A stretch of DNA of 64,000 nucleotides from Candidatus Aenigmatarchaeota archaeon (GCA_026397315.1 JAPLVC010000005.1:33737-97736); one strand, 5' to 3'. Numbered from the stretch's first letter, positions 7,473 to 49,332 are shown. Translations and numbers: made by a program. The notes: generated from the sequence alone by a model not told the origin.

Positions 7473-8228
7473 TTAAGTTATTTTAAGGCCGAAAACCCCG
7501 ATCGCGTTTTCCTTGGCGGCGCGCAGGATGTTCTCAACGCTGTCGCCTCTCAGCTCCGCTATTTTGGCTGCGGAAAGCTTTATGTTCCAGGGGTAGTTGC
7601 GCGGGTCCTGCTCTTTGTTTGGCGAAAGGAATGGGGAATCGGTCTCCAGAAGCATCCTGTCGAGCGGTATGTCCTTTGACATCTTGCGTATGTTTTTTGA
7701 GAAAAGCACCATGGTGGAAACTGATATGTAAAACCCGCGCTCCGTTATTTCTTTCGCCAGCTCTCTGGATCCGGAAAAGCAGTGAAAAACCGCTTCGACT
7801 CCCGCGTCCTTAACCATCTGGAAGCACTCATTTTCAGCGTCCCATGAGTGTATGACCAGCGGCTTTCCGATGGTTTTAGCAAGCTCTATGAAACGCGAAA
7901 ATATCTCCTGTTGTTTCGCCTGTTTTGATACATCCTTCTCCCAGTGATGGTCAAGGCCAACCTCGCCCACGCCGACGATCCTGTCCGAGTTTGCCTTTAT
8001 GAGGTTCATTATTTTTTCAGGGTTCTCGCCGCCTTCAGTTGGATGATAACCGAGCGTCGGGAAGACGAAGCCGTGGTTTTTTCTGGACAGTTCCAGTGCT
8101 TTCACACCTTCGTCGTATCTGGCCGTCCCTACTATGACTGCAGACATCTCCCTGCGGCATCTCGCCAGTATTTCATGCATGTCCTTGTCGTAATCACCGA
8201 AACACAAATGGGCGTGAATGTCAATCAT
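7473..8228 (-). CDS. tatD: TatD family DNase
   Basis: DIHAHL, GYHP, VGEVGLD, VIHS, FHCFSG, LETDSPFL. Confidence 0.95.
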   Translation of the reverse strand: MIDIHAHLCFGDYDKDMHEILARCRREMSAVIVGTARYDEGVKALELSRKNHGFVFPTLGYHPTEGGENPEKIMNLIKANSDRIVGVGEVGLDHHWEKDVSKQAKQQEIFSRFIELAKTIGKPLVIHSWDAENECFQMVKDAGVEAVFHCFSGSRELAKEITERGFYISVSTMVLFSKNIRKMSKDIPLDRMLLETDSPFLSPNKEQDPRNYPWNIKLSAAKIAELRGDSVENILRAAKENAIGVFGLKIT

Positions 8229-9051
8229 GTGCCATCCCTCCGAAAAAATAAACCAGCGCCTCTTCTATGTTTTTGACTTCCTTTATTTCAATGCCGGCCT
8301 CTTTGGCTATATCGATACTGACCGGCACTTTCTCCGTGGTGCATACTGGAGCGGGACCTGCCTGCTCGCAATATTTTCTGGTCTCATAAATTATTTCAGT
8401 GCCCTGGCCGCTAGGCACGAGAAGCGTGCTCGCGCCGGTTTCCTTCGCAGCTTTTGCTTTCATTAGCACGTGGCTGACCGGACCTATTGTGCCATCGTGA
8501 TTTATTGACCCGGTTATCATGACACGCGTGCCGACGTCTTTATGTATTAGTGAAGCTATCGTGGCTATCGCTAGCGCAGCGCCTGCCGACGGGCCTTCGA
8601 CGGATGTTGAGTTTGTCTCAATATTGTATATTATATCATATTTTGAAAGGTTCACGCCAGTTATGTTTGAGGCGACTTTGCTTGAAATGCGTATTGAGTT
8701 CTGGATGTCAGTCCAGAAAAGCATTTTGTCTATGTTGGCCAGAACCCTTCCACTGCCTTCCATCGTCTGGACAGTGAGTGTAGTTATCATGCCCATATCA
8801 TCGTCGTCAACTGCAGGAACGAGTATTGACGCGAACGAAGCGTTGGTGCCATAGTCAACCGGTTTGTAAGGGGTGTAATTTATATCTCCGGCGAGCCTTG
8901 TTTCATCGCGGTATATTATCAGCGTCTTGTTTGTGGCGCCGATCATGTAACCGGCCAGGAATATTGCGGCTGCAAAAAATATTACAGCGTATTTTCTGGT
9001 CTTGCTGTCCGGCTTCTTTTTTCTCACGGCGTCCTTCCTGTATTTATACAT
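8221..9051 (-). CDS. membrane-anchored Lon-type (S16) serine protease domain protein
   Basis: N-terminal TM helix; VEGPSAG (catalytic Ser), TGSINHDGTIGPV, catalytic Lys in MKAKAA; no AAA+ domain. Confidence 0.88.
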   Translation of the reverse strand: MYKYRKDAVRKKKPDSKTRKYAVIFFAAAIFLAGYMIGATNKTLIIYRDETRLAGDINYTPYKPVDYGTNASFASILVPAVDDDDMGMITTLTVQTMEGSGRVLANIDKMLFWTDIQNSIRISSKVASNITGVNLSKYDIIYNIETNSTSVEGPSAGAALAIATIASLIHKDVGTRVMITGSINHDGTIGPVSHVLMKAKAAKETGASTLLVPSGQGTEIIYETRKYCEQAGPAPVCTTEKVPVSIDIAKEAGIEIKEVKNIEEALVYFFGGMAHD

Positions 9052-9081
9052 AAAACCACGAGAGCGCTACGGGTCTATATA

Positions 9082-9089
9082 TTTAAATA
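9082..9089 (+). promoter_or_regulatory. TATA box for SRP RNA
   Basis: TTTAAATA about 20-25 nt upstream of the SRP RNA 5' end. Confidence 0.6.
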
Positions 9090-9107
9090 CGGCCTCTCGG
9101 ATTATTA

Positions 9108-9392
9108 ATGCAGGGGCCTCCAACCATGGGGCTAGGCCTACCGTACCTTCGGGTGGCAAACGGTCTTCACGGCCGGTTGTAGTTTGCGGATGGTTTTGCG
9201 TTGAACTGCAAAGCCCTGACTGCCAACGTAGAAGCCTTGTCCTGCAGGATCATCTTCATGACGAACCGGGTCAGGGTCGGAAGACAGCAGCTCTAAGTCA
9301 TGTCGGCGGTGCTTGCAGGGTAGCAGGGTGGAGAAGGCAATCAGGTTAACTTTCGGTTTTGTGCAAAGTCTACCGCAAACATGTCCCTGCAT
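9108..9392 (+). ncRNA. ffs: signal recognition particle (7S) RNA, apparently lacking helix 6
   Basis: Helix 8 motif GUCAGG-GUC-GGAA-GAC-AGCAGC at about 9270-9291; archaeal motifs GGGCUAGGCC, GCCAACGUAGAAGCC and GGGUGGAGAAGGC; terminal helix ATGCAGGGGC/GTCCCTGCAT; helix 5 GTTTGCGG/CCGCAAAC. Confidence 0.92.
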
Positions 9393-9443
9393 CCTGTTTC
9401 GCTAGTGCGGACCGCTTTTTATATGCGAATGCAATATTTTAAT

Positions 9444-10322
9444 ATGTCTTCCATTTACAGAAAAATTTCCCTGCTTTTTTTCGGAGGGATGGTCAACAAA
9501 AACATAGAATCTTTCAGGCCACTCGAGCCGCACATAAGAAACGCCAACATGAAAATCCTGCTGAAGACGTGGGTGAGCATGCTCTTCTTCTCGACGGCAA
9601 TCGCTTTTATTGTGTCTTTCACCGCTATATACATCCTGCTTTCATACGTTTTCCAGGTGGAGTTTTACATATACATATTCAGCGTCATATTCTTTCCCGT
9701 GTTCGTCGCATCGCTAGTATTCATATCGTTTTACCTGTATCCGGTTCAGAAGGAGCGGTCGAGGCAGAAGTCTATTGAGAACAACCTGCCTTTCGCTATA
9801 ACTCACATGGCCGCTATATCATCATCTGGCATACCCACAGAGTTTATGTTCGAGCTGCTGACGGGTTTCAAGGAATACGGAGAGATAACACAAGACGCGA
9901 AGCTCATAATGCGCAACATAAAAACGTTCGGCATGAGCTCCGTTGACGCGATGAAGGAAGTCGCCGATCGTACGCCATCGCAGGCTTTCAGGGAATTACT
10001 GCTCGGCATAGTCAACACCACAGAGACCGGCGGGGATATGATAGAATATCTCCACGGCATGGCGGAGAAGGCACTTTTCGATTACAGAATAAAGAGGGAG
10101 AAATATCTCAAGACGCTTTCTACGTATGCCGACATATACACCGCCCTGCTGGTTGCCGCGCCGCTGATGATGCTGTCAATGTTGGCATCGATGAGTATAA
10201 TAGGTGGCAGTGTAATGGGCCTTACCATAGAAGAACTGATATTGCTCATGACGTGGGTTTTGCTGCCCGCGATGAATACGGGATTCCTGGCATTCATCCA
10301 TGTCACATATCCTGGTGTGTAA
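9444..10322 (+). CDS. type II secretion F-domain platform protein (TadB/TadC/ArlJ-like)
   Basis: TM helices, IENNLPFAITHMAAISSSG, TPS motif, GGDMIEYL; start ATG 9444 chosen because the upstream extension overlaps the SRP RNA. Confidence 0.9.
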   Translation: MSSIYRKISLLFFGGMVNKNIESFRPLEPHIRNANMKILLKTWVSMLFFSTAIAFIVSFTAIYILLSYVFQVEFYIYIFSVIFFPVFVASLVFISFYLYPVQKERSRQKSIENNLPFAITHMAAISSSGIPTEFMFELLTGFKEYGEITQDAKLIMRNIKTFGMSSVDAMKEVADRTPSQAFRELLLGIVNTTETGGDMIEYLHGMAEKALFDYRIKREKYLKTLSTYADIYTALLVAAPLMMLSMLASMSIIGGSVMGLTIEELILLMTWVLLPAMNTGFLAFIHVTYPGV

Positions 10323-49202: not shown

Positions 49203-49332
49203 GGGCTCGTAGCTCAGCTGGTTAGAGCGCCGGTCTTATAAGACCGTCAGGCGTCATGCCTGATAGCTTTGAACCAACACTCATTGGTTATATGAAAGCC
49301 GGAGGTCTGGGGTTCGAAACCCCACGAGCCCA
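49203..49332 (+). tRNA. tRNA-Ile(TAT) with 56-nt intron at 37/38 (49241-49296)
   Basis: Acceptor GGGCTCG/CGAGCCC with discriminator A, D-arm GCTC/GAGC, anticodon stem CCGGT/GCCGG, anticodon TAT at 49237-49239, T-arm TGGGG-TTCGAAA-CCCCA. Confidence 0.88.

Follow-up and report, generated by a model that had tools for sequence, protein, structure and literature searches.

A reduced archaeal signal recognition particle in the Aenigmatarchaeota: SRP RNA without helix 6 and no detectable SRP19

Helix 6 of the SRP RNA and the protein SRP19 have been treated as belonging to every archaeal group and as features that tie the archaeal signal recognition particle (SRP) to that of eukaryotes (PMC2905702, PMC6098224). 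According to a 2010 review, SRP19 genes occur in all archaeal subgroups and SRP19 coexists with helix 6; the GNAR tetraloop of helix 6 packs on helix 8, and the adenosine clamp is likely to be found in all archaeal SRP RNAs (PMC2905702). Structures are available for the SRP of Methanocaldococcus jannaschii (1LNG, 2V3C; PMC2905702). Table 2 of the same review (PMC2905702) includes no DPANN group. For nanohaloarchaea, FtsY, Ffh and SRP RNA were listed in 2023 with no SRP19 and no comment (PMC10266531), and a full-text search, covering mainly the text of openly accessible papers, found no literature on a loss of SRP19 or helix 6 in DPANN, Nanoarchaeota or Aenigmatarchaeota.

Two other systems are relevant for comparison. 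The Bacillus-type particle lacks SRP19 and has Ffh/SRP54 as its single S-domain protein; its scRNA (RF01854) combines an Alu domain with helices 5 and 8 and has no helix 6. In Haloferax volcanii an SRP without SRP19 provides a precedent for an archaeal SRP that works in this state: a 2007 study by Yurist and colleagues reportedly found SRP19 to be dispensable in Archaea, to judge by its title. This is a laboratory case, in which the gene and helix 6 are still there, whereas in the case described below both are missing in nature, and this across whole phyla.

The window analysed here is a stretch of 64,000 nucleotides from Candidatus Aenigmatarchaeota archaeon (GCA_026397315.1, JAPLVC010000005.1:33737-97736), and all positions given without a locus name refer to it. 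The source genome, assigned to the Aenigmatarchaeota (DPANN), comprises 1,049,876 bases (about 1.05 Mb) in 7 contigs and is 91% complete. A gene for SRP (7S) RNA of 281 nt was located at 9110-9390 on the plus strand, on which all of its elements described below also lie. In Infernal it matched the Rfam model Archaea_SRP (RF01857) over model positions 1-317 with 106.4 bits (E = 3.8e-23), the gathering score being 96.5. No second match was present in the whole genome, so this is the sole SRP RNA copy. The gene runs colinearly and in full from one arm of helix 1 to the other and contains neither an insertion nor an intron. Reading of the sequence revealed a TATA-like box, TTTAAATA, at 9082-9089 on the plus strand, some 25 nt upstream from the 5' end of the RNA, which would represent a putative promoter given the usual archaeal TATA spacing, and 3' of the RNA a terminator-like element (9407-9420, plus strand) composed of a GCGG-A-CCGC hairpin followed by TTTTT. 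Two ORFs overlie the RNA gene, one at 9002-9349 on the plus strand (115 aa) and one at 9138-9392 on the minus strand (84 aa). Both are probably spurious and could easily be mis-annotated as proteins. On either side, the ORFs at 8221-9051 (minus strand) and 9381-10322 (plus strand) are of ordinary size.

The first-pass annotation of this locus had described four stems in which pairing continues from helix 5 into helix 8, and all four are present in the sequence. Helix 1, which had likewise been proposed to be kept, is formed by 9110-9117 and 9383-9390 with 8 pairs, and in the alignment of 30 relatives described below compensatory changes occur at all 8 of them. Further inwards, CCTGACTGCC (9215-9224) faces GGCAATCAGG (9336-9345) with nine of ten positions paired and one C/A mismatch, GCCTTGT (9234-9240) faces GCAGGGT (9323-9329), a stem read from the sequence, and the 5' arm of helix 5f, CCTGCAGG (9241-9248), pairs with CTTGCAGG (9312-9319). 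The fourth stem, CATGAC (9257-9262) with GTCATG (9297-9302), is the base of helix 8, the SRP54-binding helix (9257-9302). This helix is canonical: above the basal stem follow an asymmetric loop, a symmetric loop formed by GTCAGG and AGCAGC, and a distal GTC/GAC stem, and the motifs GTCAGG, GTC-GGAA-GAC and AGCAGC extend across 9270-9291. The GGAA tetraloop was placed at 9279-9282 by the Infernal alignment and by the sequence itself.

Between helix 5f and helix 8, at the place from which helix 6 emerges in a canonical archaeal SRP RNA, exactly 8 nt are found, as had been noted before: ATCATCTT at 9249-9256. Six of these pair with TCGGCGGT (9303-9310) and the last two lie in a 2x2 internal loop, which is the only break in the continuous pairing. 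The 3' arms of this junction segment and of helix 5f together occupy 9303-9319, as judged from fold, covariation and sequence. In the Infernal alignment the helix 6 block of the Archaea_SRP model, 40 positions long, received 1 nt. The minimum free energy (MFE) fold was identical to the centroid fold and consisted of one rod running from helix 5 into helix 8 (-119.9 kcal/mol, z = -3.96); none of 200 shuffled sequences folded as well. The competing structure that the first-pass annotation had itself named, a fold with a GNAR-capped helix 6, appeared in neither the MFE nor the centroid fold, and no alternative GNAR-capped hairpin was found in the stretch. Thus one continuous stem with a 2x2 internal loop stands in place of the three-way junction of other archaea.

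The RNA had also been called bacterial-like, and this description holds for its architecture but not for its sequence. With the model Bacteria_large_SRP (RF01854) it scored 50.6 bits and did not reach the gathering score of 60, and the match covered only 9174-9375. Since the archaeal model was passed and the bacterial one was not, the layout is due to convergence or shared ancestry and not to a transferred bacterial gene. The RNA is therefore Bacillus-type by architecture and archaeal by sequence. With the Bacillus-type scRNA it shares the combination of Alu domain, helix 5 and helix 8, the lack of helix 6 and SRP19 and, as far as can be judged from the genes of Aenigmatarchaeota, the single S-domain protein; it differs in falling below the RF01854 cut-off and in having archaeal proteins. 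With canonical archaeal SRP RNA (RF01857, for example that of Methanocaldococcus jannaschii) it shares helix 1, Alu helices 2-4, helix 5 with 5e and 5f, the GGAA tip and SRP54 loops of helix 8, and the archaeal partners SRP54 and FtsY. It differs in lacking helix 6 and SRP19, in the 2x2 loop at the junction and, within its clade, in a UUCG-capped hairpin that takes the place of the UGUNR turn.

This hairpin belongs to the Alu (small) domain, which occupies 9118-9182 and whose helices 2-4 could be aligned to the model and covary in relatives. Helix 2 is formed by 9121-9125 and 9175-9179, the loop of helix 3 is CTAGGCC (9132-9138) and the loop of helix 4 lies at 9158-9171. The Alu domain had been described as atypical, and indeed an extra hairpin, CCTTCGGG, at 9146-9153 occupies the place between helices 3 and 4 where a UGUAAC (UGUNR) turn is usual. 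The same replacement by a small UUCG-capped CCUUCGGG hairpin was observed throughout the clade of the window (genera g1, g2, g3, g9 and g10). The UGUNR turn is also missing from several archaeal groups (PMC2905702, Table 2). Compared by eye in the alignment, with no formal test, the loop-loop pairing is GGCC/GGTC in the window and GGCG/CGTC in relatives, so that it appears to have been kept through compensatory change. In two other genomes of the phylum, G148 (L106) and G122 (L107), the region of Alu helix 4 contained insertions of 131 and 142 nt.

The RNA of the window is not peculiar in its structure. Each of the 41 genomes of the order had a match to RF01857. In the phylum, 141 of the 151 genomes sampled had one, and 14 of these 141 RNAs scored below the cut-off of the model. 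About 120 of the 141 were 264-290 nt long, about 40 nt shorter than the 317-position model, and within the order the S domain, from YUGUCC to GCUUGCAGGG, measured 84 nt in the great majority. For covariation analysis 30 insertion-free RNAs were aligned, 27 from Aenigmatarchaeota and 3 from the phylum of the Woesearchaeota and Nanoarchaeia. RNAalifold predicted 79 pairs, 69 of which showed compensatory changes. Of the paired cells 90.0% were complementary, compared with 70.3% after column shuffling and 40-47% when the partners were slid by 1-3 columns; none of 500 shuffles reached the observed value, a count which is not to be read as a probability because the aligned sequences are related to each other. 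The covariation score behaved in the same way, with 0.676 observed, 0.294 in the shuffles and 0.13-0.18 with slid partners. The slid-partner control retains the relatedness of the sequences, and the signal still collapses. The stem crossing the helix 6 site (columns 136-157 with 192-214) comprised 21 pairs, was 92.4% paired and had 17 pairs changed on both sides. The junction itself (columns 144-149 with 200-205) was paired and covarying in the 30-RNA alignment. The absence of helix 6, first proposed from the window alone, is thus borne out by model alignment, fold and covariation.

Twenty RNAs of the phylum were at least 300 nt long and all of these were inspected for remnants of helix 6. In G148, G165, G151, G054, G122 and G106 the helix 6 block held 0-2 nt and in G121 it was deleted. 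The extra nucleotides of the longer RNAs were located in the Alu domain, in helix 5f, or at helix 8, either at its tip or just 3' of it. Two insertions were considered as possible remnants and rejected: one on the helix 6 side in G009 has the geometry of an intron and does not occur in the congeners G014 and G018, and one of 81-86 nt in G055 sits inside the 5' strand of helix 8. A different case is the 306-nt RNA of G069 (L116), which has a divergent 5e/5f region with two extra hairpins (loops CGAAA and CAAG) at about positions 113-160. These are upstream of helix 5f and away from the helix 6 junction, and SRP19 was found in none of the three genomes of this family with PF01922 or NF001973. 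The absence of helix 6 characterises the entire sampled phylum as well as the sampled Nanoarchaeota, and is not peculiar to the gene at 9110-9390.

The first-pass annotation had suggested an SRP that is independent of SRP19, and searches of the source genome and its relatives agree with this in that no SRP19 was detectable. A six-frame search with PF01922 gave no match in the source genome even at E <= 10, none in the order (41 genomes) and no real match in 301 genomes of the phylum, a sample which represents 151 genera and includes 98 genomes of at least 90% completeness. Because the PF01922 six-frame search missed the SRP19 of the Sulfolobus control, a search with NCBIfam NF001973 and one with our own profile were added. 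NF001973 detected SRP19 in all four archaeal control genomes. It gave no match in the source genome and no real match in the 301 genomes of the phylum or in 301 Nanoarchaeota, the phylum with the Woesearchaeota and Nanoarchaeia genomes G304, G305 and G308. As a positive control, it found SRP19 in 81 of 81 genomes of the phylum to which G310 belongs. Our own profile was built from 148 diverse SRP19 representatives, chosen among protein representatives since a homology search from an Asgard SRP19 returned close Asgard relatives only. It was run with hmmsearch --max against every stop-to-stop ORF of the source genome with a length of 30 aa or more, 18,716 in total, and the best match had an E value of 1.1 (9.1 bits). 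As the source genome is 91% complete, the absence of SRP19 from it rests on the pattern across the phylum.

Several weak matches were discarded. A match of NF002993 (E = 0.041) at G000:C1:6799-7071 proved to be the ATP-cone of ribonucleotide reductase. A 16-bit PF01922 match in G214, a member of the phylum, contained six stop codons, and sub-threshold matches in G410 and G143 were partial (16-18 bits) and lay inside ORFs of 411-430 aa; all three were taken as noise.

SRP19 and helix 6 are present or absent together. G310, in which SRP19 was detected with 63.6 bits, has an SRP RNA of 310 nt with a full helix 6 block and a GGAG-capped hairpin, and G304, a member of the Woesearchaeota without SRP19, has 0 nt in this block. 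SRP19 was also present in the Asgard genomes G306 and G307.

The remaining proteins of the particle were readily found. SRP54 is encoded at L043:562-1899 by an ORF of 445 aa that matched PF02978 with 118.3 bits and has an intact RNA-binding motif, SM..ER...RIAKGSG, in its M domain. PF00448 matched twice in the genome, in SRP54 and in an FtsY-type ORF of 412 aa. We therefore consider it highly probable that the window encodes a functional SRP RNA devoid of helix 6, that SRP19 is absent and that the particle consists of SRP54 and RNA only. A two-component SRP is the most likely outcome because the missing protein is the one whose primary binding site is helix 6. In such a particle SRP54 would use its M domain to bind both loops of helix 8, the symmetric and the asymmetric one, in the way Ffh binds bacterial 4.5S RNA or Bacillus scRNA. 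Helix 1 and the Alu domain would be retained for contact with the elongation-factor site of the ribosome, FtsY would serve as the receptor, and the clamp of helix 6 and SRP19 would be replaced by nothing. That SRP54 binds unaided and that the particle is active are expectations which lean on published statements about binding of SRP54 by archaeal SRP RNA and about the dispensability of SRP19; archaeal SRP RNA has been described as binding SRP54 even without SRP19 (PMC2905702).

In addition to the features discussed so far, the SRP RNA genes of sister species contain insertions which have the geometry of tRNA-type introns, with a 4-bp helix and two 3-nt bulges on opposite strands. If each bulge is cut behind its second base, as predicted, the product matches the insertion-free sister species exactly in sequence. 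Insertions of 31-34 nt placed exactly in helix 8's GGAA tetraloop were observed in G001 (L030:1501-1812) and G002 (L040:51-363), which belong to the genus of the window, and in G009 (L007:1501-1847), G012 (L037:51-364), G013 (L023:1501-1815), G017 (L034:51-362) and G021 (L035:51-364, minus strand). Their core reads ...G[UCGG]AA|A ... [CCGA]AA|GAC, with UCGG/CCGA as the helix and AAA and AAG as the bulges, and predicted splicing would yield GUC-GGAA-GAC, identical to 9276-9285 of the window. They turn up sporadically within genera, the pattern to be expected of archaeal introns. G009 has two candidate introns of 43 and 31 nt, and without both its RNA would be 273 nt long, the length found in its congener G014.

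Insertions of the bulge-helix-bulge (BHB) type also occurred elsewhere in the RNA, namely in helix 5f, in the loop of Alu helix 4, at a YUAA^G site 3' of helix 8 and in further helix 8 tips. In RNA positions they lie at 140-182 in G009 (L007), 44-81 and 219-261 in G033 (L038), 137-168 in G031 (L041), 215-256 in G117 (L110), 181-223 in G121 (L113), 171-209 in G054 (L115) and 182-218 in G151 (L111). At the YUAA^G site the 4-bp helix was kept in three genomes with different sequences (CCAU/GUGG, CUCU/GGAG and CCUU/AAGG). An earlier finder for bulge-helix-bulge motifs with a tolerance of +/-8 nt matched 36% of random positions and was replaced by a test of product equivalence. This was passed by 15 of 38 alignment-defined insertions against a random-position background of 4.8%, or by 16 if the doubtful case of G165 is counted, although several insertions are clearly the same intron, so that the passing cases are not independent. 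The intron predicted in G165 would leave a helix 8 tip that is too short and was rejected as probably mis-placed. On the basis of their geometry and predicted products, the insertions of the sister species may be regarded as tRNA-type introns. A tRNA-intron endonuclease domain was detected at G000:C1:34871-35107 (minus strand) in an unusually long ORF of 398 aa. The window also contains a tRNA gene at 49203-49332 on the plus strand (Rfam, 56.8 bits) with an intron of 57 nt after the anticodon loop, for which ARAGORN gave no call.

It is also worth mentioning that public MAG records under the titles Aminicenantes bacterium, Methanosarcinales archaeon and Micrarchaeota archaeon contained SRP54 sequences 43-79% identical to that of the source genome. 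L061 (JAFCCF010000040), L059 (OZ246410) and L071 (JACCLJ010000033) each had an Archaea_SRP match of 260-275 nt and no SRP19, for which reason the record labels appear mistaken. In L065 (G313) no SRP RNA was matched.

It might be argued that another protein still acts on helix 8. If an unrelated factor, such as a small basic RNA-binding protein, stabilised this helix in place of SRP19 and helix 6, one might point to Bacillus, where the non-SRP protein HBsu binds the Alu domain; direct support for such a factor in the present case is nil. Bacterial SRPs whose S domain is built in the same way do not require one, the sequence of helix 8 is canonical and no conserved small gene was seen beside the RNA, the flanking ORFs being of ordinary size, so that we regard this possibility as improbable. 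Still less probable, in our opinion, is an SRP19 that escaped detection through divergence or because it lies in unassembled DNA, and that binds helix 8 alone or some other site. In its favour are the rapid evolution of DPANN proteins, the 91% completeness of the genome and the failure of PF01922 to detect the true SRP19 of one control genome. However, two models gave no real match in 301 plus 301 genomes while all four archaeal controls and the entire control phylum were positive, the exhaustive profile search of ORFs did no better than an E value of 1.1, and helix 6, the primary RNA site of the protein, is gone.

The other doubts concern the RNA. Helix 6 could be supplied in trans by another transcript or appear only upon processing, given that the SRP RNA of Thermoproteus is permuted and requires processing (PMC4731332) and that the SRP RNA genes of relatives carry the candidate tRNA-type introns described above. 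This is very hard to reconcile with a window gene that is colinear, complete and uninterrupted, with a junction stem that covaries as a continuous helix and with a single RF01857 match in the genome; moreover, without SRP19 there is no known reason for keeping helix 6, and we give the idea very little credence. The helix inventory, being that of a Bacillus-type RNA, might finally suggest that the locus is a pseudogene in decay, that it results from misassembly or that a bacterial-type SRP RNA was gained by transfer. The same architecture recurs in 141 genomes with compensatory changes throughout, the genome encodes SRP54 and FtsY and has no other SRP RNA gene, and the archaeal model was preferred to the bacterial one by 106.4 bits to 50.6 (cut-off 60), which makes this explanation scarcely worth considering. 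A particle of SRP54 and RNA only thus remains the preferred reading.

With regard to the direction of change, the state without helix 6 and SRP19 would have arisen by loss in an ancestor of DPANN. It is conceivable, if rather unlikely, that this state is instead the ancestral archaeal one, which DPANN have kept. If DPANN are basal, a single gain of helix 6 and SRP19 in the ancestor of the other archaea and eukaryotes would be a more parsimonious account than gain and subsequent loss. The clean absence of helix 6, with a 2x2 internal loop at the junction, fits excision and later insertion alike. Should the ancestral reading be true, the 'eukaryote-like' S domain of the SRP arose after the DPANN split.

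The reduced archaeal SRP of the Aenigmatarchaeota is real and lineage-wide, and will be moderately surprising to specialists. For annotation pipelines and completeness estimates it means that SRP19 is not to be expected in such lineages, and the score of the window RNA just above the Rfam cut-off (106 compared with 96.5 bits) matters for annotation as well. The combined state of an RNA helix and a protein offers a discrete two-part character for the debates on DPANN monophyly and the archaeal root, and a minimal archaeal SRP is on offer for structural and reconstitution work. Whole phyla with small genomes and neither SRP19 nor helix 6 would be natural knock-outs, and as such they would suggest that the clamp of SRP19 and helix 6 is dispensable for the core of the archaeal SRP formed by SRP54 and helix 8.
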